From a virus (taxonomy: Duplodnaviria; Caudoviricetes): 64,000 nt of DNA. Location of the stretch: positions 32,001 through 96,000 of IMG/VR virus record IMGVR_UViG_3300032225_001437, one strand, 5' to 3'. Below are positions 7,329 through 32,120 of the stretch, piece by piece (the first letter of the stretch is position 1; each line of letters opens with the position of its first letter). Below the pieces are notes generated by a model. The model saw nothing but the letters and a program-made list of their open reading frames with translations, searched no databases and was not told the origin of the DNA. The position numbers and the translations under genes were made by a program.

Positions 7329-7402
7329 TGGTGCCCCTTGACAGAATCGAACTGCCAATTGATGATTACAAATCAACTGTTATACCATTTAACTAAAAGG
7401 GC
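7329..7402 (-). tRNA. tRNA-Thr(UGU)
   Basis: Cloverleaf, anticodon loop TT-TGT-AA, TTCGA T-loop, CCA end. Confidence 0.93.
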
Positions 7403-7448
7403 GTAATGCTACTTATTTGTTACAAAGTGTATCCATAAATATCATGTA

Positions 7449-7595
7449 ATGAAACTTCAACACGATGACCTAGGCTTCTATTTTGAATTCAAGTATGCTC
7501 GATATATCGAGCATCCGGGCTGGTACCTAATGGGCACAACATTACTGGGTATCTTTGCATTCAATCTAGGATTTTTAATAGGGTCAATTTGGTAG
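7449..7595 (+). CDS. 48-aa membrane protein
   Basis: MKLQHDDLGFYFEFKYARYIEHPGWYLMGTTLLGIFAFNLGFLIGSIW; preceded by a TAAATA motif. Confidence 0.5.
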   Translation: MKLQHDDLGFYFEFKYARYIEHPGWYLMGTTLLGIFAFNLGFLIGSIW

Positions 7596-7667
7596 GACCT
7601 ACTGGATTCGAACCAGGGACCCTGGAGGTAGAAGCTCCATGCTCTAATCCAACTGAGCTAAGGTCCT
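7590..7667 (-). tRNA. tRNA-Arg(UCU)
   Basis: Anticodon arm TGGAG-CTTCTAC-CTCCA; CCA end. Confidence 0.93.
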
Positions 7668-7674
7668 GCGTATT

Positions 7675-7764
7675 TGGCGGAGAGTGTGGGATTCGAACCC
7701 ACGATAGTGTTGCCACTATGACGGTTTAGTAGACCGTTGGTTTCAGCCGCTCACCCAACTCTCC
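7675..7764 (-). tRNA. tRNA-Ser with an unusual ACU anticodon
   Basis: GGAGAG acceptor, long variable arm, G73; anticodon arm ACGGT-CTACTAA-ACCGT. Confidence 0.9.
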
Positions 7765-7818
7765 GTAATTTTACTGTCATATACCTTTTGATAAATACCT
7801 TTATAAACAGCGTATATT

Positions 7819-8250
7819 ATGTTACACACAATCACAACCATTTCAGACGATCTTGCCCACCTTATCAAGGACGATCCTGTGCGCCCAGAAATACCCCTGT
7901 CTGATCGCGTAAACTCAAACAGTCGAATTTACATGTTAAAAGATGGTGATCAAACCCTGGCCGTTACCTGTGTTAAATTTTTAGAAACAATTCCTTCAGC
8001 AGTGGATGATTTGGTTGTGATAATCGGCAGTGCAACCACAGCAGTATTCTACACTATCTGGAGCTACACAGCCGGTGCCGGGCGAGACCTTATTGTAGCA
8101 GCTCAACGGTCAATTGAATCCGAATTTCCAGAGATTCAAACTTATGTGACCCTAAGTCCCAAGACCGAAATGGCTCGGCGCTTTCATCTCAAAAACGGCG
8201 CTCGTCAATTACGAGAAAACACCGACACCATCAACTACATCTACAAATAA
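7819..8250 (+). CDS. GNAT-like protein resembling the malonyl-CoA decarboxylase catalytic domain
   Basis: AVFYTIWSY...GRDLI...EFPEIQTYVTLSP resembles the MCD motifs AIFYSIS / FVTLSP. Confidence 0.55.
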   Translation: MLHTITTISDDLAHLIKDDPVRPEIPLSDRVNSNSRIYMLKDGDQTLAVTCVKFLETIPSAVDDLVVIIGSATTAVFYTIWSYTAGAGRDLIVAAQRSIESEFPEIQTYVTLSPKTEMARRFHLKNGARQLRENTDTINYIYK

Positions 8251-8252
8251 CA

Positions 8253-8414
8253 TCACTTGTTTAAAATCTGTGTCTGTTTAAAGGCCTTGATCTTGGCGTG
8301 AGCACTGGCTTGACTAGCCATAATCTGTCTACTGGCCTCGGCTCGTTTTTCAGTCTTGGTCCATTGTCCTGCTAAGGTACGACTCAATTCAGTTGCTGTT
8401 TGTTGTTTTGCCAT
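8253..8414 (-). CDS. 53-aa hypothetical protein
   Basis: Manual translation MAKQQTATELSRTLAGQWTKTEKR...; AGGA SD. Confidence 0.6.
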   Translation of the reverse strand: MAKQQTATELSRTLAGQWTKTEKRAEASRQIMASQASAHAKIKAFKQTQILNK

Positions 8415-8422
8415 TTTGATTC

Positions 8423-8557
8423 CTATCTAAAAAATTTTCTAACAATCCATTTTAACCAAAGATAACGGACCGGCCGGGTTGGGAAAAAATCAACACCCCA
8501 TCCTACTTCTCGGGGCATATTGCCATAGGCTCGATCTAGTGTATCTTTACGGGTCAT
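8423..8557 (-). CDS. 44-aa hypothetical protein
   Basis: MTRKDTLDRAYGNMPREVG...; ATGA overlap with the rpoZ-like stop. Confidence 0.5.
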   Translation of the reverse strand: MTRKDTLDRAYGNMPREVGWGVDFFPTRPVRYLWLKWIVRKFFR

Positions 8558-8775
8558 TTTACCTTGGCCATGTATTGAAGCATGTCAATTTTACCTTGTT
8601 GCATTTCTAACAAGGCATCAACTGGAGTAACATACGCACCGGTTTCTCGTGCTCGACGCTTGAGTTCACGCAGACGTTGTGATACAGCAACGATCATGTC
8701 GTAACGAGAGCCAGCAAGCCCTACACATTTTTCAAGATCAACTTGGCTACTACGACTATCAACGATTGGTTTCAT
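8554..8775 (-). CDS. rpoZ: RNA polymerase omega subunit homologue
   Basis: GSRYDMIVAVSQRLREL and TPVDALLEMQQGKI align with RpoZ GNRFDLVLVAARRARQ / TTVIALREIEEGLI. Confidence 0.7.
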   Translation of the reverse strand: MKPIVDSRSSQVDLEKCVGLAGSRYDMIVAVSQRLRELKRRARETGAYVTPVDALLEMQQGKIDMLQYMAKVK

Positions 8776-8798
8776 ATCTTCTCCTGTTGTAAATGTAT

Positions 8799-8827
8799 AT
8801 TATACACTAAAAAATACTGACAGTCAA
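8799..8827 (-). promoter_or_regulatory. sigma70-type promoter
   Basis: TTGACT-N17-TATAAT. Confidence 0.75.
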
Positions 8828-8844
8828 GCATTAATTTTTAAAAC

Positions 8845-8921
8845 TGGTGCCCCGGGAAGGATTTGAACCTTCAACAGCTCCCTTCTGAGGAGAGTGCGTC
8901 TACCAATTGCGCCACCGGGGT
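8845..8921 (-). tRNA. tRNA-Leu(CAG) with a short variable loop and an A1:C72 mismatch
   Basis: Leu-type D arm GGCGCAATTGGTAGACGC; anticodon arm CTCTC-CTCAGAA-GGGAG; 5-nt variable region. Confidence 0.85.
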
Positions 8922-8935
8922 CGACGTATTTAATA

Positions 8936-9013
8936 TGGAGCAACGGGCTGGATTTGAACCAGCGGTTTTAGGGATTTGCAATCCCTTGCATTGGGCCGCT
9001 CTGCCACCGTTGC
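8936..9013 (-). tRNA. tRNA-Cys(GCA)
   Basis: AGGGA-TTGCAAA-TCCCT; U73; CCA. Confidence 0.93.
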
Positions 9014-9021
9014 CTTGCTAC

Positions 9022-9096
9022 TGGGGTACTGTAAGAGTATCGATCTCTTGCTACGAGCTCCACAAACTCGGGTGCTACCATTACACCAACAATACC
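9022..9096 (-). tRNA. tRNA-His(GUG)
   Basis: G-1:C73, GTG anticodon; atypical T-loop ATCGATA. Confidence 0.88.
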
Positions 9097-9102
9097 ATTG
9101 TC

Positions 9103-9176
9103 TGGAGCGGGATATCGGAATCGAACCGATGACGAAAGATTGGAAATCTTTAGTTTTGCCCCTAAACTAATCCCGC
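9103..9176 (-). tRNA. tRNA-Gly(UCC)
   Basis: GCGGG acceptor, TCC anticodon, U73. Confidence 0.93.
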
Positions 9177-9184
9177 ATAAAAAC

Positions 9185-9269
9185 TGGTGCGACTGGCCAG
9201 AATCGAACTGGCACGCCCGCAAGCGAGAGATTTTAAGTCTCTTGTGTCTACCTATTTCACCACAGTCGC
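9185..9269 (-). tRNA. tRNA-Leu(UAA)
   Basis: AGAGA-CTTAAAA-TCTCT; long variable arm. Confidence 0.95.
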
Positions 9270-9289
9270 AAAATATCTCTCTAACTAAC

Positions 9290-9364
9290 TGGCACTCGGA
9301 AGGGGAATCGAACCCCTCTTCCCGCCGTGAAAGGGCGGTGTCCTAACCGATAGACGACCCGAGC
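9290..9364 (-). tRNA. tRNA-Glu(UUC)
   Basis: CCGCC-CTTTCAC-GGCGG. Confidence 0.95.
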
Positions 9365-9371
9365 GTAAATC

Positions 9372-9456
9372 TGGTGGAGAATACTGGGATCGAACCAGTC
9401 GTACCCGAAGGCGGCGGATTTACAGTCCACTGCATCACCATTGATGCTTCTTCTCC
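9372..9456 (-). tRNA. tRNA-Tyr(GUA)
   Basis: CTGTAAA loop, long variable arm, CCA. Confidence 0.92.
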
Positions 9457-9460
9457 AAAA

Positions 9461-9531
9461 ACATATAAGAACACACTCACGTTTCTAGTGTCTCTGTTGG
9501 CTATGGGCCAACCGAATGTGTTCATATATGC
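9461..9531 (-). ncRNA. small structured RNA candidate (long closing stem)
   Basis: GCATATATGAACACATTC...GAGTGTGTTCTTATATGT pairs over about 17 bp and encloses the hairpin GTTGGC-CCATA-GCCAAC. Confidence 0.45.
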
Positions 9532-9756
9532 TCTTCAGCCCCCGGCGGTCAACTATATTCTAAACTCTGCAACACCCTACTGGTGTCGCCTCTGGTTGGC
9601 CGATCAGCCTCAGCAGAGAAACAAGTTAGACCTCATCCGCTACACGACAGGGCTCGTTATCGCATTGCCAGCGCCAGTTGGGGTTAGACTGGGACCACCC
9701 GTAGCAGTCAGCTACTTCTCATCGTGTGGGTCACACTAGCCGACGACACTCGGCAC
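9532..9756 (-). ncRNA. manA-like structured RNA
   Basis: GC-rich multi-hairpin region between tRNAs; the element order hairpin-UAGUGUG, GAUGAGAAG-hairpin-GGUGGU, CUGGCAAUG, CCUGUC matches my recollection of the manA motif. Confidence 0.55.
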
Positions 9757-9761
9757 GTTCT

Positions 9762-9838
9762 TGGTCGGAGTACGAGGGTTCGAACCTCGGACCTCCTGGT
9801 CCCAAACCAGGCGCACTACCAGGCTGTGCTATACTCCG
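9762..9838 (-). tRNA. tRNA-Pro(UGG)
   Basis: CGGAGT acceptor; CCTGG-TTTGGGA-CCAGG. Confidence 0.95.
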
Positions 9839-9840
9839 AC

Positions 9841-10044
9841 TTATTTCTTATCAAACTTGGGATCTTCGTAGATCACTTCTTTTTCTTCTTTATGCATGTA
9901 GTCTGGAAGCAAATTCCAACCCCAACTTTTCCAATACTTGTAAATGATATTATTAATAACCACCGCAGCGATTACAATAATAATAAATCCAAGTGCTGTC
10001 AAAATACTACCTGCTAAAAACACTGCCGCCTGATCAATATCCAT
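9841..10044 (-). CDS. small membrane protein
   Basis: One long hydrophobic segment; GAGG SD. Confidence 0.7.
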   Translation of the reverse strand: MDIDQAAVFLAGSILTALGFIIIVIAAVVINNIIYKYWKSWGWNLLPDYMHKEEKEVIYEDPKFDKK

Positions 10045-10057
10045 GTTTACCTCTTAA

Positions 10058-10131
10058 TGGTTGCGGGTCCTGGAATCGCACCAGGGACTAGAGCTTATGA
10101 GACTCTCGAGATACTCCTTCTCCAACCCGCG
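10058..10131 (-). tRNA. tRNA-Met(CAU) with an initiator-type acceptor stem
   Basis: CGCGGG...CCCGCAACCA (C1:A72 mismatch), CTCATAA loop; lacks the three G:C pairs of the initiator anticodon stem. Confidence 0.85.
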
Positions 10132-10143
10132 ATCGAAAACACT

Positions 10144-10172
10144 ATTTTACACTAACTGCTATACCTTGTCAA
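10144..10172 (-). promoter_or_regulatory. internal sigma70-type promoter in the tRNA array
   Basis: TTGACA-N17-TAAAAT just upstream of tRNA-Met. Confidence 0.65.
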
Positions 10173-10180
10173 ACTGTTTC

Positions 10181-10254
10181 TGGCGAATCCCCAGAGACTC
10201 GAACTCCGACGAACGGTTTTGGAGACCGTTATGCTGCCATTACATCAGGGACTC
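10181..10254 (-). tRNA. tRNA-Trp(CCA)
   Basis: ACGGT-CTCCAAA-ACCGT; G73. Confidence 0.92.
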
Positions 10255-10260
10255 AACTTC

Positions 10261-10335
10261 TGGCGGTCTCGACGAGAATCGAACTCGTCCCATCCCCGTG
10301 ACAGGGGGATATTCTAACCAATAAACTACGAGACC
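10261..10335 (-). tRNA. tRNA-Asp(GUC)
   Basis: TCCCC-CTGTCAC-GGGGA; G73. Confidence 0.95.
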
Positions 10336-10345
10336 GTTTAAAACT

Positions 10346-10951
10346 TTACATCGCAGGACCGTTGCCGTTCCTGAATCCAACTTCACCACCTTCTGCTTCG
10401 ATGCGTCGGATCACGTCTTCAAACAAGATCGGAGCAAAATCAGTTTGTTCCACGCAAACGCAATGATAACGAACATCATTCTCGTCACTGTATAAAACTT
10501 CACCGGTCTTAGCATCGACACCACGAGCCCGCTTGACACGATTTGCGTGTAAGTGTCCATGGATGTTGACACCAAAACGACCAAGGCTTTCTGCGTGAAC
10601 AGGAATATGACTCAATATCATTCCGTTCATGACATGATATGCTCTAAGCTCACGAAAGTGTTCACGATATTCCTCATCACGAAAAATGTCGTGGTTACCA
10701 CGGATTAAGATCTTGTCGCCGTTTAAGCGACTCATGATCTTTAATGCCTTGCGGTTGATGACAACGTCGCCTAAGTGGTAGACCTTGTCAGTGGGCTTGA
10801 CTCTTTCGTTCCAAGCCTTGACCATAGCTTCGTCCATTTCCTCAGGACTATCCCAAGGACGTAACTTTGTAACACCGTCATTACGGGTGAAGCGGCAGAC
10901 GCCGGTATGTCCGAAATGTGTGTCGCTTACTAAAAATACACTAGGCATCAT
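10346..10951 (-). CDS. calcineurin-like metallophosphoesterase
   Basis: SDTHFGH, HLGD, GNHD, SHIP, HGHLH motifs; AAGGAGG SD before MMPSV. Confidence 0.9.
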   Translation of the reverse strand: MMPSVFLVSDTHFGHTGVCRFTRNDGVTKLRPWDSPEEMDEAMVKAWNERVKPTDKVYHLGDVVINRKALKIMSRLNGDKILIRGNHDIFRDEEYREHFRELRAYHVMNGMILSHIPVHAESLGRFGVNIHGHLHANRVKRARGVDAKTGEVLYSDENDVRYHCVCVEQTDFAPILFEDVIRRIEAEGGEVGFRNGNGPAM

Positions 10952-10979
10952 GCCCTCCTTTCTTTTAACTGTTACTATT

Positions 10980-11008
10980 ATTATAGCAAATGGACTATTT
11001 TGGGTCAA
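10980..11008 (-). promoter_or_regulatory. sigma70-type early promoter (TTGACC family)
   Basis: TTGACC-N17-TATAAT. Confidence 0.8.
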
Positions 11009-11039
11009 CCTACTAATTTGTAATACTTTTGTATTAACG

Positions 11040-11345
11040 TCAAGCAGTCAGCCACTTTTCATTGGATTCCAATACCAGACTTTCTGCTCCATCATATTCA
11101 TCAATGCGGAAACGAGCTCCTGCTGGCACCCACTTTACTTCTAAATCTTTCAGCCCTCCGCAATACACATCTGGATACTTTAATTCCATATAGGTAACAA
11201 TTTTATCAAAATTTTCTTGCTCAACCCACTCTACAATGCTAGGATCATAGATCAATTGTTCATTGCCGTGCCAGGTATACCAACCAGCACCGTAGCCAGG
11301 GCTTACCAACACAGCTACTCGACCATCACGAATTAATTTTTTCAT
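11040..11345 (-). CDS. hypothetical phage protein
   Basis: VAVLVSPGYGAGWYTW...FRIDEYDGAESL. Confidence 0.75.
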   Translation of the reverse strand: MKKLIRDGRVAVLVSPGYGAGWYTWHGNEQLIYDPSIVEWVEQENFDKIVTYMELKYPDVYCGGLKDLEVKWVPAGARFRIDEYDGAESLVLESNEKWLTA

Positions 11346-11484
11346 TGTTTTTTAATTTCTTTACTGCATCAATTTGTGCTATCATCGCTTCGACCTGTGC
11401 TCGGGCCCGAGCGACCTTACTCTCAAGCAAGGCCATACGTTCTTCTGGATTTAAAAAAAATTTATTTTCTTTGTTGTCTGTCAT
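11326..11484 (-). CDS. 52-aa coiled-coil hypothetical protein
   Basis: Manual translation MTDNKENKFFLNPEERMALLESKVARARAQVEAMIAQ...; first gene after the attenuator. Confidence 0.5.
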   Translation of the reverse strand: MTDNKENKFFLNPEERMALLESKVARARAQVEAMIAQIDAVKKLKNNEKINS

Positions 11485-11498
11485 ATTTTTCTCTCAAT

Positions 11499-11529
11499 AA
11501 AAAACCCCGGACTGTTTAGTTTCGGGGTT
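11499..11529 (-). terminator. intrinsic terminator of the putative attenuator
   Basis: AACCCCGAAACT-AAAC-AGTCCGGGGTT followed by a U-run. Confidence 0.8.
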
Positions 11530-11553
11530 GTTGAATAAAGTTAAAACTTACTG

Positions 11554-11649
11554 CTATTCAAAACCCACCCTACAATCTTCACAGCCATAGACCCACAGTC
11601 CAATTATTGGATTGTTTGCTAAAGAAGGATGCAAGTTATTAATCATCAT
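11554..11649 (-). CDS. putative attenuator leader peptide (31 aa, leaderless)
   Basis: MMINNLHPSLANNPIIGLWVYGCEDCRVGFE*; ATG 7 nt after the -10 box; the stop lies in the antiterminator arm. Confidence 0.7.
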   Translation of the reverse strand: MMINNLHPSLANNPIIGLWVYGCEDCRVGFE

Positions 11650-11656
11650 AGTAAGT

Positions 11657-11685
11657 ATTATACAGGTTTATTTATGCCGTGTCAA
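11657..11685 (-). promoter_or_regulatory. sigma70-type promoter with an embedded TAAATA
   Basis: TTGACA-cggcataaataaacctg-TATAAT. Confidence 0.85.
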
Positions 11686-11703
11686 CCAGCGTATTGCCAA
11701 AAT

Positions 11704-11726
11704 AAAAGGCCCCGAAGGGCCTTTTT
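11704..11726. terminator. bidirectional intrinsic terminator
   Basis: AAAAGGCCC-CGAA-GGGCCTTTTT. Confidence 0.85.
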
Positions 11727-11750
11727 GAGAACTCTAATCAAACTGTTTGA

Positions 11751-12476
11751 TTAGAATGATTTTGCTACAGAGAAAACTGCGGCATTGCGATACAACTTTT
11801 GACCATTTACGGTGTTGGCTGTGTTGAACGCTGTAGTCTTGTCGCCGTTGGTGTAATACTTGGCGGCCAAGTTCCAACCTTGTAAGTCGTAACCTACACC
11901 AAAGTTGTAGTCGTTATAGTCCAATGAAGAACTATTAGCAACATTAGTCTTACCTGCGTGAGCAAGCAAACTGATCTTTGAACCAGCGATTGGATATGCT
12001 ACATCAGCTTGGTAGTATGCTGTGCCTTGAGCATTGGCTGTACCAAAGTAGCCATTACCCAATGTACGATTATACTTGACGCTTACTGGACCATAACCTA
12101 GACCAACATAACCTTCGTATGTGTCAAAGTTTGAACCTGTACGAGCTGAGGTAGTGGCACGTGGATAAAAATAATTATAAGAACCAACATCAAGTGTTAG
12201 ACCTTTGTAAATATCTTTCTTCCAACCAGCATATACATCTGACTCAACACCTGAACCGTTTGTGTAAACTTGTGAGCTTACTGAACTGTTCCAGTTACCG
12301 ATATAGAAACCGCTTGAGTGAGCGTAGTCAATACCGCCTTGGACAGCAGGAGCATTTTGGGATTGGCTGATACCACGGAAGCGGTAGTCTGAGGTCAATC
12401 CTAAATTGCCAGATACTTGAGCGTGAGCTGAAGTAATGCCAGCCAATACGAATAATGCTAATAATAATTTCTTCAT
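11751..12476 (-). CDS. TorF-family (TIGR02001-like) putative outer-membrane porin
   Basis: Signal peptide; SDYRFRGISQS..PAVQGGIDY...GFYIGNWNS; C-terminal Phe. Confidence 0.88.
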   Translation of the reverse strand: MKKLLLALFVLAGITSAHAQVSGNLGLTSDYRFRGISQSQNAPAVQGGIDYAHSSGFYIGNWNSSVSSQVYTNGSGVESDVYAGWKKDIYKGLTLDVGSYNYFYPRATTSARTGSNFDTYEGYVGLGYGPVSVKYNRTLGNGYFGTANAQGTAYYQADVAYPIAGSKISLLAHAGKTNVANSSSLDYNDYNFGVGYDLQGWNLAAKYYTNGDKTTAFNTANTVNGQKLYRNAAVFSVAKSF

Positions 12477-12596
12477 TTGTTTTATTTCCTTTTAAAAGTA
12501 ATGCTTAGAATAATATTTAGTGGTTTTTACTAGTGGCCAGTAATTTTTGCACACTTTCCTGCCATTTTTATAGTTAACGGCGTAGTTAACTAAGTT

Positions 12597-12623
12597 AAAA
12601 GAAACCCGCCGAAGCGGGTTCTT
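12597..12623 (-). terminator. intrinsic terminator after the tmRNA
   Basis: AACCCGC-TTCG-GCGGGTTTCTTTT. Confidence 0.85.
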
Positions 12624-12624
12624 A

Positions 12625-12932
12625 CTATTTTCTGTTACGAGGTATAATTACCCTAAGCAGTGATTAAACTGCTAAAGATTGGCGTTGTGCTGAACGAGCA
12701 GAGAACTTGACGTTCTTACCAGATACAGTTACTTCGCCTTTAGATGCGTTTGCATTTAAAGTATTTGCTTGATTTACAGTCATCGCCTACTGTGTTGCCT
12801 CTTTCGCTATCTCACCATGTCGAATCCAAATACAGGCCCACCTAAATATACTATATCAATATACTTAGGTGGACCTGCCCGGGGTCGAACCGGGGTCCAC
12901 AGTGCCTTCACTACGAAGGAATTACAACAATT
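12625..12932 (-). ncRNA. ssrA: two-piece (circularly permuted) tmRNA
   Basis: The acceptor piece (T-arm CCCGG-TTCGACC-CCGGG, CAGGTCCACC ending at 12868) precedes an AT-rich hairpin spacer and the coding piece starting GGGCCTG...GGATTCGAC at 12839; G3:U70; tag ORF 12664-12753. Confidence 0.88.
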
Positions 12933-12944
12933 CTTTATTTAATG

Positions 12945-13214
12945 TTAAACAGCTTCGGCTGTTGCAGCCGTTGGTGCTGGACTAAATCCGTTGCAAAGTG
13001 CTACATACCCAGTTGCATCATTAATATCTGACCAACGATTTACATAGGTAAGCGTAGGTTCATTAAACATATCTACTCCAACTTGGCGACCTGCGGCAAT
13101 AACATCTTTTTTAAAGTTGCTTATTGCTAGCTGTTCTGATGCAGTAACTGGTCTGCCAAAAACTATAGTGCTTTGAGCGTTGGCAAGAAATTGTGTCTGT
13201 GCTAATTTTGTCAT
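12945..13214 (-). CDS. hypothetical protein
   Basis: ORF with an AAGGAG SD and an upstream TAAATA. Confidence 0.7.
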   Translation of the reverse strand: MTKLAQTQFLANAQSTIVFGRPVTASEQLAISNFKKDVIAAGRQVGVDMFNEPTLTYVNRWSDINDATGYVALCNGFSPAPTAATAEAV

Positions 13215-13268
13215 TGTAAAACTCCTTTTTGTTATGCGCTATTATTTACTAACAGCAGTATTAACTAC

Positions 13269-13472
13269 TTATGCAGGCACAATATTTGATGCCTGCTTGC
13301 CTTTTGGGCCTTGTACCAAATCAAATTTTACCACTTGATTTTCTTTCAATGTTTTAAATCCATTGATATTGATTGCTGAAAAATGTGCAAATACATCTTC
13401 TCCACCGTCGTCGGGTGTGATAAATCCAAAACCTTTTGCATCATTAAACCATTTTACTTTACCTACTACCAT
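13269..13472 (-). CDS. csp: cold-shock domain protein
   Basis: [33 protein letters not shown]. Confidence 0.97.
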
Positions 13473-13506
13473 AATATACTGCTTCCTTTTAAATTAATCA
13501 TGAGTG

Positions 13507-13677
13507 CTAATTATAGCCTTTTACAACATTGTTGTCAACCTTGGGATTACCTTTTGCATGAGCATCTAAAAAAGCACGATCACGCTCGGCCGGCAACTTT
13601 CCACAACTTAACCGATCCCATTCTTTTTCGGAATAGTAATACTGATTAACAGGTTTTTTCTGCTGTTCCACGATCAT
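13507..13677 (-). CDS. hypothetical protein
   Basis: Start moved to MIVEQQ so it does not overlap the tRNA. Confidence 0.55.
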   Translation of the reverse strand: MIVEQQKKPVNQYYYSEKEWDRLSCGKLPAERDRAFLDAHAKGNPKVDNNVVKGYN

Positions 13678-13692
13678 GTTATTTAGCGTGTT

Positions 13693-13767
13693 TGGTGGGC
13701 CAGCTTGGAATTGAACCAAGACTCGACCGATTATGAGTCGGTTGCTTTACCATTAAGCTACTGGCCC
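13693..13767 (-). tRNA. tRNA-Ile2(CAU) (lysidine type)
   Basis: GGGCC acceptor, ACCGA-CTCATAA-TCGGT; has its own promoter TTGACA-N17-TATACT at 13776-13804. Confidence 0.85.
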
Positions 13768-21417: not shown

Positions 21418-22275
21418 TCAAGTGCCCCATTCGTTTTTAAACAGCGGCACTTGTAATCGATCACTGTAACGAAGTCCGTGTTTCATTGCTAACAGGGCCA
21501 CATTACGATTATTCATTGCGTATACTGTTTCCACACCACCTACTGGCATTAGATAAACATGTCCTGTAAATCCTGCTGAACGATACGCACCAATAGCACA
21601 TTCTGCATCGGCAAAGTCTTGCTCTGTAGCAATAACAAACTTCAAGTATGCTGTGCCATATTCCTCATACTCATATACTATTTCTGGGAGAATTGCTTCT
21701 TCCCACTTCTCTCCACTGCATGGCAATTTAGCACTTACTGAGAATGTAATCTCACGACAAAATTCTTGATCATGATGTGATTTCCAAGTGTGCAAATACG
21801 AAGCGAATTCTAGAGCAAGTTTCTGAGTACCGTTTGTTTCAAAGGTAATTTCTTTCAACCCGGCCATCTTGGGATGATTCAACAGATCTGGATAAGCACG
21901 TTGCCAGCCCAGCAAAGGCTCGCCGCCTGTGATCACAAGATGTTCATCACGCCATTCACCGTGTGGCAGTATCTCCATAATGCGCTCAACAATAGCATCA
22001 GTAGTTAACATAGGACTTAAATCCTTGAAACTAGGATGCCAGCTAGCATAGCTGTCACAGCCGGTGCTCACCAATGGCAATTCTTCATATTTGTTATATA
22101 AATGTGCCACCTCACTGAGTTCTTCTGCTTCTTTGCTCAACTCACCACGCGGCATGCCAAAACCGGAGCATTTAAAGTTACATCCAAACACACGCAAGAA
22201 TACCGATGGTACACCCATATACCTGCCTTCGCCTTGCACTGAATAGAATAATTCTGCTATTTTTAATTTACTCAT
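21418..22275 (-). CDS. queE: 7-carboxy-7-deazaguanine synthase (radical SAM)
   Basis: ELFYSVQGEG..GVPSVFLR..GCNFKC...GCDS, ITGGEP, ETNGT, RYSDRLQ. Confidence 0.92.
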   Translation of the reverse strand: MSKLKIAELFYSVQGEGRYMGVPSVFLRVFGCNFKCSGFGMPRGELSKEAEELSEVAHLYNKYEELPLVSTGCDSYASWHPSFKDLSPMLTTDAIVERIMEILPHGEWRDEHLVITGGEPLLGWQRAYPDLLNHPKMAGLKEITFETNGTQKLALEFASYLHTWKSHHDQEFCREITFSVSAKLPCSGEKWEEAILPEIVYEYEEYGTAYLKFVIATEQDFADAECAIGAYRSAGFTGHVYLMPVGGVETVYAMNNRNVALLAMKHGLRYSDRLQVPLFKNEWGT

Positions 22276-22474
22276 CGTTGACCTTTATTGGAATACCTTT
22301 ATACATATATTGCACAGAATTGTCTTTCTGAAATGATTTGTCAAACATGGTGTAGATGGAATCAAATTCTTTTTGAGTCAATTCAAAATACTCAATGGGT
22401 TTTGATTTGGCTTGAACAAAAATAGCATTGTTCATTTCATCTAAAATAGTTCGTTCTCTATAGTGTATTTTCAT
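22268..22474 (-). CDS. hypothetical protein
   Basis: Start MKIHYRE, overlapping the PRTase stop. Confidence 0.6.
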   Translation of the reverse strand: MKIHYRERTILDEMNNAIFVQAKSKPIEYFELTQKEFDSIYTMFDKSFQKDNSVQYMYKGIPIKVNDE

Positions 22475-23001
22475 TGCCACCAATCCTCCCAAGGAAACAC
22501 AATCCAACAATCTTCTTCGGCTTTATTTAGATCAATTGCTGAATAACTAATTTTTAATTTACTAGCACTGGCTTCGTTATCTACCAGGGTAGCAATACGA
22601 ACATTGTTGCCCCATACTTCTGCCCAGCGTTCATCGTTAGGTAAACACCCGCTTTGCCAATCTTCTTGGATCCAGTTTAATGTAGCACCGCTATCGTTAA
22701 TGTCGTCTACAATAAGAATACGTTTACGACCATCGCCTGAACACATTGGATCACAGATGTCGTAGCCAAACGCATCTTCGGCCATACCTAGATTACTAAC
22801 GCAGTCGCCACCATCACGTAAACTCACATCCAATGACTTCATAGGAACTTCTAAGTATTGGCTAATAAGGTTAGCCGGAACCAAGCCGCCACGAGTGAGT
22901 CCAACTACATAATCGGGCAGCCATGCATCACGTTGCAGTTGACGCAGGATTTCTTGTGTTTGATTTTCAATGTCTTGCCAGGTATAGTATACTTTTTTCA
23001 T
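22471..23001 (-). CDS. purine phosphoribosyltransferase-like protein (type I PRTase)
   Basis: VVGLTRGGLVPA, ILIVDDINDSGAT, WIVFPWE (Gpt-like). Confidence 0.88.
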   Translation of the reverse strand: MKKVYYTWQDIENQTQEILRQLQRDAWLPDYVVGLTRGGLVPANLISQYLEVPMKSLDVSLRDGGDCVSNLGMAEDAFGYDICDPMCSGDGRKRILIVDDINDSGATLNWIQEDWQSGCLPNDERWAEVWGNNVRIATLVDNEASASKLKISYSAIDLNKAEEDCWIVFPWEDWWQ

Positions 23002-26933: not shown

Positions 26934-27082
26934 TTACCAATGCCTTGCAACACCGGCAATTATAAACAAATTGGTAACAAAATAGGATACTACAATAAAA
27001 GTACGAACCAGTGCCACTAAGTGGCACCGGACTTTTCTCCTAGCGCCTTGGCCCAAAGACGCCAATAGTGTTTAACCTTCGT
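26934..27082 (-). pseudogene. disrupted small membrane-protein gene
   Basis: WRLWAKALGEKSGAT* then, in another frame, VALVRTFIVVSYFVTNLFIIAGVARHW*; the start is ACG; the break lies at the palindrome GTGCCACT-A-AGTGGCAC. Confidence 0.6.
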
Positions 27083-27521
27083 AGATAGCCGAGTTGGCAC
27101 CGTGTTCTGCACATTCTACCCTGACGCAATAGCAACGACCGTTGGTCTTTTCTCTAATTAATTGATCAGCAAAACGGAAAGCATGTTCAGCAAACTTTTC
27201 TGCACCTACACCATCAAAGATACGTATCTCTGCTAGATCCAATTTTTCTAATTCTAGAAATTTGAGCAAGTGCGGATCTGCCTTGTCCAATGCTAACTTG
27301 TGATCAAAGTGATCTTCCAACCAGGCTTTGAGCGGTTTGAGTCCGCCAAAGTCCACTGCCCAGTTCTTGTTGTCTAGTGTATCGCAGCCAAATGTAAATG
27401 TGAACGCTAGACTGTAGCCATGTAGCAAGTGACAGTGACTGTGATCTGCATTGGGTTGACGGAATACTGCTGACAGACCAATGTTGTGTCCGTAATGCTT
27501 TGTTGAATAATACTTTGCCAT
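27072..27521 (-). CDS. queD: 6-carboxy-5,6,7,8-tetrahydropterin synthase
   Basis: SHCHLLHGY, VDFGGLK, FDHK, AEKFAE, EHGANSA. Confidence 0.9.
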   Translation of the reverse strand: MAKYYSTKHYGHNIGLSAVFRQPNADHSHCHLLHGYSLAFTFTFGCDTLDNKNWAVDFGGLKPLKAWLEDHFDHKLALDKADPHLLKFLELEKLDLAEIRIFDGVGAEKFAEHAFRFADQLIREKTNGRCYCVRVECAEHGANSAIYEG

Positions 27522-27524
27522 TAT

Positions 27525-27594
27525 AATTCTCCTATGTTAGATTATAGCATAGGCGGCAGAATTTATAAAGCGGGATGAACGCCAAAGACCGCTG
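27525..27594 (-). promoter_or_regulatory. riboswitch-like pseudoknot plus SD-sequestering hairpin in the queD leader
   Basis: AGCGG/CCGCT stem, loop TGGCG pairing with downstream TGCCG, A/U-rich linker; a CCTATG/CATAGG hairpin covers AGGAG. Confidence 0.6.
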
Positions 27595-27597
27595 GGT

Positions 27598-27843
27598 TTA
27601 TTTTTTCTTGCTTGGCGCCGATTTTCTAGCTGACTTGGTTTCTGCGACATCAGTTGCATTGGCTGATTTGATCAATTGTTCCACTGTGTCAAGAGCCTCG
27701 GTAGTAGCAAACATTTGCCAAAGTTGATTGCCAGTGGCATCAATGGGAGAAAACTTGAATTCAATTACTGAATCGTTTTTTAGTTGTAGTTGTATGGTTC
27801 GGTCTTGTGGCGTATTTAAATTTACTGTGCGTAGGTTTGTCAT
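27598..27843 (-). CDS. hypothetical protein
   Basis: ORF track. Confidence 0.6.
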   Translation of the reverse strand: MTNLRTVNLNTPQDRTIQLQLKNDSVIEFKFSPIDATGNQLWQMFATTEALDTVEQLIKSANATDVAETKSARKSAPSKKK

Positions 27844-30700: not shown

Positions 30701-30729
30701 ATTATAGCAAATAACTATTTTTGGGTCAA
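30701..30729 (-). promoter_or_regulatory. sigma70-type early promoter (TTGACC family)
   Basis: TTGACC-N17-TATAAT. Confidence 0.8.
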
Positions 30730-31052
30730 TCTCGCGTTAGATACTGTAGTTTATTGGCAACACCGGACCATGTTTTATGTTCGGGCATGGATTCCTTGGA
30801 CTTGGTTAGAGGTTTCCATAATCGAGCCAGTTCGGCATTAATTTCAACAAATTGTTTTTGGTCCTCTGGAACATCATCAAGAGCATAGATAGCATTTTCG
30901 GGGCATTCTGGAACGCATACGGCACAGTCAATGCATCCATCAGGATCGATTGCTAGAAAGTTTGGACCTTCTACAAAACAATCCACTGGACAAACATCTA
31001 CGCAATCAGTATGCTTACAAAGAATACATCCTTCTGTTACAACATAAGTCAT
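30726..31052 (-). CDS. fdxA: 7Fe ferredoxin
   Basis: MTYVVTEGCILCKHTDCVDVCPVDCF...CIDCAVCVPECP. Confidence 0.95.
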   Translation of the reverse strand: MTYVVTEGCILCKHTDCVDVCPVDCFVEGPNFLAIDPDGCIDCAVCVPECPENAIYALDDVPEDQKQFVEINAELARLWKPLTKSKESMPEHKTWSGVANKLQYLTRD

Positions 31053-31273
31053 GCTCGTTGTCCTTGCAACCATGCATCCACACGCTGTTCGGCTTCGTCT
31101 TGACTCATGGCCGGAACGGTAATCTCTACCGGACCTCCTAAAACATGGTTCATGTTATACGGAATTGGATTACCATTAAAAATAATTTCTTCTATGTCTC
31201 GAAATACCAAAAACTCTTGTAGGTTTTTAGCACGGTTAATAAGTTGATCTGCTTGATCTTTTGCGTTGGTCAT
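31049..31273 (-). CDS. hypothetical protein
   Basis: Overlaps the flanking genes by 4 nt. Confidence 0.7.
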   Translation of the reverse strand: MTNAKDQADQLINRAKNLQEFLVFRDIEEIIFNGNPIPYNMNHVLGGPVEITVPAMSQDEAEQRVDAWLQGQRA

Positions 31274-32046
31274 CTTGGGGCAAAGTCCTGTTGTAGTTTA
31301 ATATTGTCCATGAACTCTTTCTTGGTTCCAGAGTCTGTAGCAAAGCTACCTTTTAATACTGTGGTCTGTGTTAAACTTGAATGGGCCATGATGCCACGAT
31401 TTTCACAACATCCGTGAACTGCTTGTATGTAAACACCGACGTTTTCTGATTCTGTAGCCCGCATTATTTCTCTTGCGATGTCGTTACATAGTTCTTCTTG
31501 AAGTGTGCCACGACGAGCACACCACTGAGCGATCCTAGTATATTTAGACAGGCCAATAAGTTTATTAGCGGCGATGATTCCGATGTAAGCAACACCAGAC
31601 ACAGGCTGATGATGGTGACTGCACATAGAACGCAATTCGCTACGAACAACAAGCATACCTTCGTATCTATCTTCTGAATCATTTGGAAAAGCTGTTGCAT
31701 CTGGTGCTGGATCATATCGACCTCCCATAATTTCGTTAAAATACATTTTAGCAAGGCGACGTGCTGTGCCCTTTGAGTTAGGATCGTTTTCACGATCAAT
31801 TAGTAATCGATCCAATACAGTTTCAAATGCTTCTGCAGCTTCGTTGATTAGAATTTCCTTGTCACCTTCGTGCAAGTAATCACTGATGTTGTCACCTGCC
31901 CAGAATCGTTTGTTATCACGCTTCATTGCAAAACGAATAGCATCGCCTAGATAACCTTCTTGATAATCTTTGTCGCTCATCATCACAGCGGCATCTTCGT
32001 AGCCAGGATGATACGGTGCTTCTTCTACTAATTTTTTATTTGTCAT
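31270..32046 (-). CDS. folE: GTP cyclohydrolase I
   Basis: SMCSHHHQP, IGLSKYTRI, LQEEL, HGCCENRG. Confidence 0.95.
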   Translation of the reverse strand: MTNKKLVEEAPYHPGYEDAAVMMSDKDYQEGYLGDAIRFAMKRDNKRFWAGDNISDYLHEGDKEILINEAAEAFETVLDRLLIDRENDPNSKGTARRLAKMYFNEIMGGRYDPAPDATAFPNDSEDRYEGMLVVRSELRSMCSHHHQPVSGVAYIGIIAANKLIGLSKYTRIAQWCARRGTLQEELCNDIAREIMRATESENVGVYIQAVHGCCENRGIMAHSSLTQTTVLKGSFATDSGTKKEFMDNIKLQQDFAPR

Positions 32047-32120
32047 TGTTTCTCCGAGTTATTAAGGTCGAGGATGACCAGTCTTGTTACTATTATAACA
32101 GTTATTTAGATTTAAATCAA
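32047..32120 (-). promoter_or_regulatory. folE promoter and small structured leader
   Basis: TTGATT-N17-TATAAT with an embedded TAAATA; hairpin GGTC-ATCCTC-GACC before the CTCGGAG SD. Confidence 0.55.

Follow-up and report, generated by a model that had tools for sequence, protein, structure and literature searches.

The 76-nt leader of a queD-like phage gene had been predicted, from the DNA alone, to fold into a preQ1-I-like pseudoknot riboswitch, which raised the questions of whether such an RNA exists, whether it belongs to a known preQ1 family and how it could act on the gene behind it. The DNA analysed here (the window, 64,000 nt) comprises bases 32001–96000 of a 156-kb IMG/VR virus record, which was judged to be 43% complete. 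The near-complete relatives are 343–356 kb in length, therefore the source of the window is a giant phage. Fifteen tRNA genes and a two-piece (permuted) tmRNA gene of the beta-proteobacterial type were located on the minus strand at 7332–13767 of the window, the tmRNA scoring 124 bits with RF01850 and 110.5 bits with RF04321.

The 149-aa product of the gene behind the leader matched Pfam PTPS (2.1e-13) and phrog_2389 'QueD-like' (1.2e-39), it hit TIGR03367 QueD with 2.9e-8, which is under the cut-off of that model, and its closest solved structure was the CPH4 synthase 7v0f (E 0.005). The QueD-like proteins encoded behind the motif described below carry SHCxxxHGY in place of the canonical CxxxHGH, and HGH was seen only in the type represented by L154. 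Judging from these sequences, their chemistry may differ from that of the standard QueD.

An H-type pseudoknot in front of the queD-like gene

The sequence elements on which the original prediction was built were all found, letter for letter, on the minus strand and where it had placed them: the 5-bp P1 stem enclosing a 15-nt loop, the A/U-rich linker leading to UGCCG, and the CCUAUG-N11-CAUAGG hairpin overlapping the SD-box (Table 1). The segment 27593–27552 was confirmed to be an H-type pseudoknot, which lies before the hairpin that covers the SD-box. The proposed topology is borne out by the presence of the motif in 74 of the 80 relatives fetched with the protein sequence and by covariation of both P1 and P2 far above chance. 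With regard to P2, the prediction had to be amended: the pairing between the loop and the 3′ tail stood up, but its direct UGGCG:UGCCG register, which is unsupported in relatives such as L007 and L016, gave way to a register 3 nt away, where four of the five 3′ nucleotides named originally still pair with the loop. In this register, the P2 3′ strand begins right behind the conserved UCUGC. Pairing of the P2 5′ strand with AUGCU of the hairpin, considered as another possibility, occurs in some leaders and is not general. The nested MFE of the leader was not better than that of its shuffles (z −0.10), which is explained by the pseudoknot itself, about which nested folding says little.

Table 1. 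Features of the queD-like leader and of the genes related to it (window positions)
Feature	Position	Strand	Description
Leader gap		minus	76 nt between the 81-aa ORF (27598-27843) and the 149-aa ORF (27072-27521)
P1 5′ strand	27589-27593	minus	AGCGG, pairs with 27569-27573
L1	27584-27588	minus	UCUUU; consensus N-C-U, then 0-9 variable nt
P2 5′ strand	27576-27583	minus	P2a GGCG (27583-27580), UU internal loop, P2b CA (27577-27576)
L2	27574-27575	minus	UC (U27575, C27574); C27574 abuts the P1 3′ strand
P1 3′ strand	27569-27573	minus	CCGCU, covaries with the P1 5′ strand
L3	27559-27568	minus	UUAUAAAUUC, A-rich linker with conserved UC at its end
P2 3′ strand	27552-27558	minus	UG (P2b), C27556 facing U, CGCC (P2a)
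P2a pairing	27583-27580 with 27555-27552	minus	
P2b pairing	C27577-G27557, A27576-U27558	minus	across the U.C mismatch
RBS-sequestering hairpin	27531-27553	minus	CCUAUG (27553-27548), 11-nt loop, CAUAGG (27536-27531); first CC common to P2a
Translation start region	27516-27533	minus	SD AGGAG (27533-27529), spacer, AUG, GCA; UGGCA pairs with UGCCG (27558-27554) in the apo fold
Start codon of queD-like gene	27521-27519	minus	ATG at 27521
Regulated gene	27072-27521	minus	QueD/PTPS-like T-fold protein, 149 aa, SHCxxxHGY motif
Sigma-70-like site	27541-27569	minus	TTTATA-17-TGcTATAAT, 10/12 matches plus TG
FolE gene	31270-32046		Pfam 1.8e-38
QueE-like gene	21418-22275	minus	radical-SAM enzyme, phrog_2076 8e-48
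Phosphoribosyltransferase gene	22471-23001	minus	beside the QueE-like gene

Covariation and distribution of the motif

Searching IMG/VR with the queD-like protein yielded at least 596 relatives, 80 of which were kept. The six relatives outside the motif-bearing set included two loci that were cut off, three without the motif and one with a divergent form. The leaders were compared in two alignments, the model-based A2 with 63 unique leaders and A3 with 124 unique leaders, in which both P2 strands were anchored on conserved flanks. In A2, 94% of the P1 cells were paired, while 75.4% of the P2 cells were paired in A3 as opposed to 58.2% after shuffling. P1 covariation reached 0.398 in A2 (0.103 shuffled, 0/500 as high, slid controls at most 0.116) and P2 covariation 0.444 in A3 (0.175 shuffled, 0/500 as high, slid controls at most 0.176), although these shuffle statistics overstate independence, as the leaders belong to related phages and the sample was partly collected by pattern. 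The original prediction had named covariation in phage queD leaders among the evidence to look for, and both stems provided it. The middle pair of P1 was CG in 40, AU in 21 and UA in two leaders of A2, and the compensating variants of the whole stem comprised AGCGG/CCGCU, AGAGG/CCUCU, AGUGG/CCACU, ACCGG/CCGGU, UGCGG/CCGCA, and AUCGG/CCGAU. The four P2a pairs adjoining the conserved core were each represented by three to five pair types in A3 (for one of them UA 42, GC 28, AU 20, CG 9, GU 4). Besides GGCG/CGCC of the window, P2 occurred as GGUG/CACC, GAUG/CAUC, and GGCA/UGCC with four pairs, and in longer versions such as GGCAU/AUGCC, GACGC/GUGUC, and AUGACAU/AUGUCAU. Loop-side UCA was accompanied by UGC and UCG by CGC in 59 and four unique leaders of A2, respectively, with no discordant case, thus P2 runs over the conserved U.C mismatch into a C-G and an A-U pair (P2b), and its total length is 7–10 bp across the leaders. 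Considering these results, we concluded that the element is a real, strongly supported structured RNA.

The loops vary much less than the stems, about 16 loop nucleotides being without variation. The C and U of L1 were identical in all 63 leaders of A2, which was partly imposed by the regex used for selection, and its first base was A in 30, U in 22, and C in 11. Directly before the P1 3′ strand, a C was found in 63/63 leaders, the base ahead of it being U in 40, A in 16, and C in seven; L2 was only 2–3 nt long. In L3, columns 37 and 39–41 of A2 were A and columns 43–44 were UC in every leader. The top of P1 is GG/CC without variation in A2, and the exception is the divergent form in L066 (2934–2979), which has the P1 AGACG/CGUCU with CG/CG at its top and a P2b of the UCG/CGC type. 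It scored 10.8 bits with R1, the covariance model of the motif, consequently the motif family is wider than R1. The search pattern of the second sample fixes GCGG/CCGC, UCA, and UCUGC, and invariance at these positions in A3 is partly by construction; the P2a positions and A2, apart from the L1 C and U mentioned above, are unaffected by it.

R1 detected one convincing copy each in the window, in the 156-kb record and in five related genomes, three of which are at least 96% complete. Another candidate in G005 (21.8 bits) was discarded because it lies antisense within an ORF, as was a loose regex match in L035 and L036, which is inside a coding region. A pattern scan of IMG/VR that was blind to gene content found at least 120 loci, and the gene downstream of every real instance of the motif was queD-like, even though the encoded proteins belong to at least five types with only 25–54% identity between them. 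Three of the 131 leaders have one additional gene between the motif and queD; assigned by eye, these genes are a 282-aa ORF (L193), a 113-aa cupin-like ORF (L143), and a 240-aa methyltransferase-like ORF (L149). When one genome from each of 185,579 species of bacteria and archaea was scanned with a stringent pattern, only two matches were obtained, both on MAG contigs (6 and 8 kb) with a motif-queD unit. Since these two contigs look like phage, a bacterial origin of the motif was dismissed. The motif is effectively confined to phages, and more than a hundred uncultured giant phages from aquatic sources have kept it.

Upstream of the motif, a full promoter of the form TTGAY-N16-19-TAnnnT was present in 31 of 130 distinct contexts. 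It mostly ends 7 nt ahead of P1, which puts the knot at the beginning of the mRNA in those cases. In the subtype of the window, the stop codon of the upstream ORF is located 4 nt before P1, and the element would therefore lie in a read-through transcript. In G001, folE is directly upstream of the motif. A family of near-identical promoter-like sites of the form gTTGACc-N14-15-ttTGCTATAAT-a(c/g)ttgta precedes minus-strand genes in the whole record, G000 (window positions 759, 1024, 10988, and 30709, minus strand), and words within one mismatch of TATGCTATAAT were found eight times compared with the 1.7 expected. These sites are probably the early sigma-70 promoters of the phage.

Alternative helices and the proposed switch

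In the predicted apo MFE structure of the window's leader, P1 was kept, UGCCG paired with the UGGCA of the start region and CCUAUG with CAUAGG. The hairpin assumed originally to sequester the SD-box was thus recovered in the fold and covers it. The total energy of this fold was −15.9 kcal/mol, of which −3.8 was left when the aptamer region was made unavailable. The hairpin stem was identical in 58 of 64 unique platforms of the window's subtype, the rest having U.G or one mismatch, and among these 64 the invariant stem showed no covariation. In the apo MFE structures of 118/131 unique leaders, the P2 3′ region contributed 3 or more nt to pairs with the RBS window. With L3 and the P2 3′ strand blocked together, the RBS was unpaired with a mean probability of 0.590 instead of 0.447 (131 leaders), which is a moderate gain. 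Blocking the P2 3′ region alone cost 4.9 kcal/mol compared with 2.65 for shuffled strands, although only 41 of the 131 leaders exceeded 95% of their own shuffles in this cost.

In the 57 platforms without the hairpin, the P2 3′ strand and the next 3–6 nt pair with the spacer and AUGGC(A) in a helix of 6–10 bp, for example, UGCCAUUG/CAAUGGCA, GUCAUCUU/AAGAUGGC, and CCAUUAUU/AAUAAUGG. The A of AUG was paired in 54 of them, the pair at position −1 was G-C in 33, A-U in 14, and U-A in five, and the anti-RBS helix had 3 or more nt in common with the P2 strand in 51. The P2 5′ strand mimics the start region and often reads AUGGCA. Since the P2 3′ strand is common to the knot and to the anti-RBS helix, the two structures are mutually exclusive, therefore stabilization of the knot should turn translation ON. 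The motif thus combines a constant aptamer core with platforms that differ between subtypes and overlap the P2 3′ strand, in cis to a metabolic gene, which is a trait of riboswitches.

We propose that the P1 hairpin would be formed in both states. Upon binding of a small ligand, the 3′ tail UG-C-CGCC would dock on the loop, form P2 and close the H-type knot, by which the RBS would be freed and queD translated. Without the knot, the 3′ tail and the bases following it would pair with the SD-box and/or the start codon, in the window through the CCUAUG/CAUAGG and UGCCG/UGGCA helices. The ligand probably presents a guanine-like face, such as that of a 7-deazapurine or a pterin, as suggested by the invariant C before the P1 3′ strand, which would read it. 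Ligand binding, the identity of the ligand and the direction of the switch are what we infer from the predicted folds and the conserved loops. That the element is a cis-acting, phage-specific riboswitch-type aptamer in the leader or intergenic region of a QueD-like (CPH4 synthase type) gene is our main reading, to which we assign a probability of about 55%. Several points speak against it: the gain in RBS accessibility is moderate and only a minority of the leaders surpass 95% of their shuffles, the hairpin stem of the window's subtype does not covary, the leaders come from related phages and were partly collected by pattern, for a biosynthetic gene an ON switch is unusual, and the internal sigma-70-like site could yield transcripts without the aptamer.

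Relation to preQ1-I, pathway context and rival explanations

No Rfam 15 family reached its gathering score at the site in the window, and none was found at E ≤ 10 in the 351 nt at 27400–27750 or in ten diverse homologue loci. Membership in a preQ1 family, for which a search with the Rfam models had been recommended, was accordingly not supported for preQ1-I, II, or III, while the preQ1-I-like topology, that is, an H-type knot with a P1 of about 5 bp and a P2 formed by the loop and the 3′ tail, was upheld by covariation in both stems. The only match nearby, a weak one to SNORD112 (15 bits), was regarded as chance. No published description of the motif was found in the literature searched, which covers the field incompletely and includes the 224-motif paper.

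The original prediction had also noted that no genes forming preQ0 or preQ1 were visible. This held in part: folE and a queE-like gene lie in the window (Table 1), but QueF and TGT gave no match and QueC only weak partial ones. FolE and QueE were present in all five genomes examined, and the window also encodes several sugar-nucleotide enzymes. Pfam searches, which divergent DpdA or QueC proteins could escape, gave no match to the TGT family in 20 related records, to QueF in five related genomes or to QueC in three relatives of at least 96% completeness; the weak partial QueC matches were the NAD-synthase ORF of the record itself and hits in 6 of 15 further records, some of them ORFs of about 210 aa. 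The pathway may end at CDG or a derivative of it, so that a ligand different from preQ1 is plausible, and the FolE-QueD-QueE set suggests an unusual route ending at CDG or 7-deazaguanine, possibly through a nucleotide. Between folE and a gene for a large FG-GAP protein, a small 2x[4Fe-4S] ferredoxin with a DUF3470 tail is encoded at 30726–31073 (minus strand), and this protein could be an electron donor of the radical-SAM QueE-like enzyme. The folE leader (32047–32100, minus strand) contains TGTTATAAT followed by about 45 nt with a GGUC/GACC hairpin, the AUCCUC loop of which is complementary to the SD sequence GGAG. We considered this leader as a second copy of the motif and rejected it: UCAUCC is shared, but R1 does not match and the parts cannot be aligned with those of the motif.

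The preQ1-I aptamers are H-type knots with a conserved G-C topping P1 and an A-rich L3; they have UC (type I) or AC (types II and III) before the P1 3′ strand, where the C reads the guanine face of the ligand, and UU atop the P1 5′ strand in types I and III, their SD bases lie inside P2, and all three known preQ1 classes exert OFF control (PMC11625349). The phage motif shares with the preQ1-I RNAs (RF00522; for example, those of B. subtilis queC, T. tengcongensis, C. antarcticum, and E. coli) the knot and the 5-bp P1 with an invariant G-C at its top, the position of the specificity cytosine, which is occupied by C27574 and belongs to a UC or AC in 56 of 63 leaders, the A-rich L3 and the link to genes of the queuosine/7-deazaguanine pathway. 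All these would suit a divergent but true preQ1-I member, which binds host-made preQ1 or preQ0 in the same pocket and has only its platform rewired. Nevertheless, we hold this to be rather unlikely, because even at E ≤ 10 none of the preQ1 models matched the window or the ten diverse homologues, and because the architecture departs from preQ1-I at several points. L1 is N-C-U and not UU or UC after the P1 5′ strand; P2 is longer (7–10 bp), contains the conserved U.C mismatch and the CA/UG step, and its 3′ strand is preceded by the extra conserved UC-UGC; L2 has only 2–3 nt; the SD-box is not in P2 but 19 nt 3′ of it; the separate anti-RBS helix implies ON instead of OFF control; and the motif is known only from phage DNA. 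The lack of a QueF match in the five related genomes and of a QueC match in the three relatives of at least 96% completeness, with weak partial matches elsewhere, also argues against such a member. By analogy, the motif would work like preQ1-I, and it may descend from it, but most likely represents a new riboswitch candidate that is specific to phages and related to preQ1-I in its architecture.

The pseudoknot could also serve as a translational operator to which a phage protein binds, perhaps a RegA-like repressor or QueD itself. T4-type phages employ pseudoknots in mRNA leaders as well as translational repressors, and in the T4 gene 32 leader a pseudoknot nucleates the binding of the encoded ssDNA-binding protein for autogenous translational control. 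This precedent, in which the mRNA of a T4-type phage carries an H-type pseudoknot at its 5′ end, the restriction of the motif to phages and the conserved loop nucleotides, which could equally be protein contacts, favor an operator, yet we find it improbable, as the RNA core is constant while the QueD-like proteins diverge down to 25–54% identity, a single gene per genome is ill-suited to a global repressor, and a built-in competing helix is typical of riboswitch platforms. The motif differs from the gene 32 leader: its gene encodes a PTPS/QueD-like T-fold enzyme instead of an ssDNA-binding protein, its loops show high conservation, and it contains an alternative anti-RBS helix of its own. A structure acting without any ligand, either by setting a fixed, temperature- or folding-rate-dependent level of translation or by stabilizing the mRNA 5′ end, would agree with the similar energies of the two states and with the extreme 5′ position of the element on the mRNA in many relatives; however, simple competition between helices has no need of some 16 unpaired nucleotides that do not vary, the C beside P1 among them, which leaves this explanation a poor prospect as well. 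Finally, the conservation might reflect DNA signals only, namely the internal sigma-70 promoter and/or a terminator of the upstream gene. The promoter-like site matches 10/12 positions plus TG, and TGCTATAAT-like words, which mark probable promoters, are enriched in the window (8 vs 1.7 expected), but a promoter cannot explain compensatory changes that preserve RNA pairing. Moreover, the site is devoid of the TTGAC −35 box common to the best promoter-like sites of this phage, its −10 box falls in the hairpin loop, which varies and is absent in the subtypes lacking the hairpin, and no terminator-like site was found on the strand of the leader, by which the terminator was discarded. Such an explanation is thus very hard to credit: the sigma-70-like site cannot replace the RNA element, although it may act alongside it as a weak bypass promoter.

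Among further known systems, the Vibrio add adenine and ZTP riboswitches resemble the logic proposed here, in that their aptamer captures a strand that otherwise sequesters the SD-box or AUG, but their fold and sequence are unrelated to the motif; activation by sensing a precursor would resemble the ZTP riboswitch. SAM-II and SAM-V riboswitches are compact H-type pseudoknot aptamers common in aquatic metagenomes, from which the motif differs in its consensus, in its gene, in the lack of an Rfam match and in their OFF logic.

Returning to the riboswitch-type aptamer, a more specific version of it is tentative and falls short of even odds: the motif would represent a new riboswitch class confined to phages, with a pocket floor like that of preQ1-I, which senses another guanine-faced metabolite of the truncated FolE-QueD-QueE route encoded by the phage itself and turns translation ON. 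The candidate ligands would be dihydroneopterin triphosphate or GTP, acting as feed-forward signals, or CDG or 7-deazaguanine. If so, it would be the first activating member of the RNAs sensing 7-deazapurines and a regulator of phage DNA-modification chemistry. To our knowledge, there are few validated examples of riboswitches that a phage carries for genes of its own. The motif stands before the first committed enzyme of a 7-deazaguanine pathway in which neither a convincing QueC nor any homologue of QueF or TGT was found. Should the motif bind a metabolite, it would represent a new class of aptamers, about 42 nt in length and easily tested, and could be used in engineering as a compact ON switch; it would also point to the end product of this pathway and show how phages time or tune the chemistry of DNA hypermodification.
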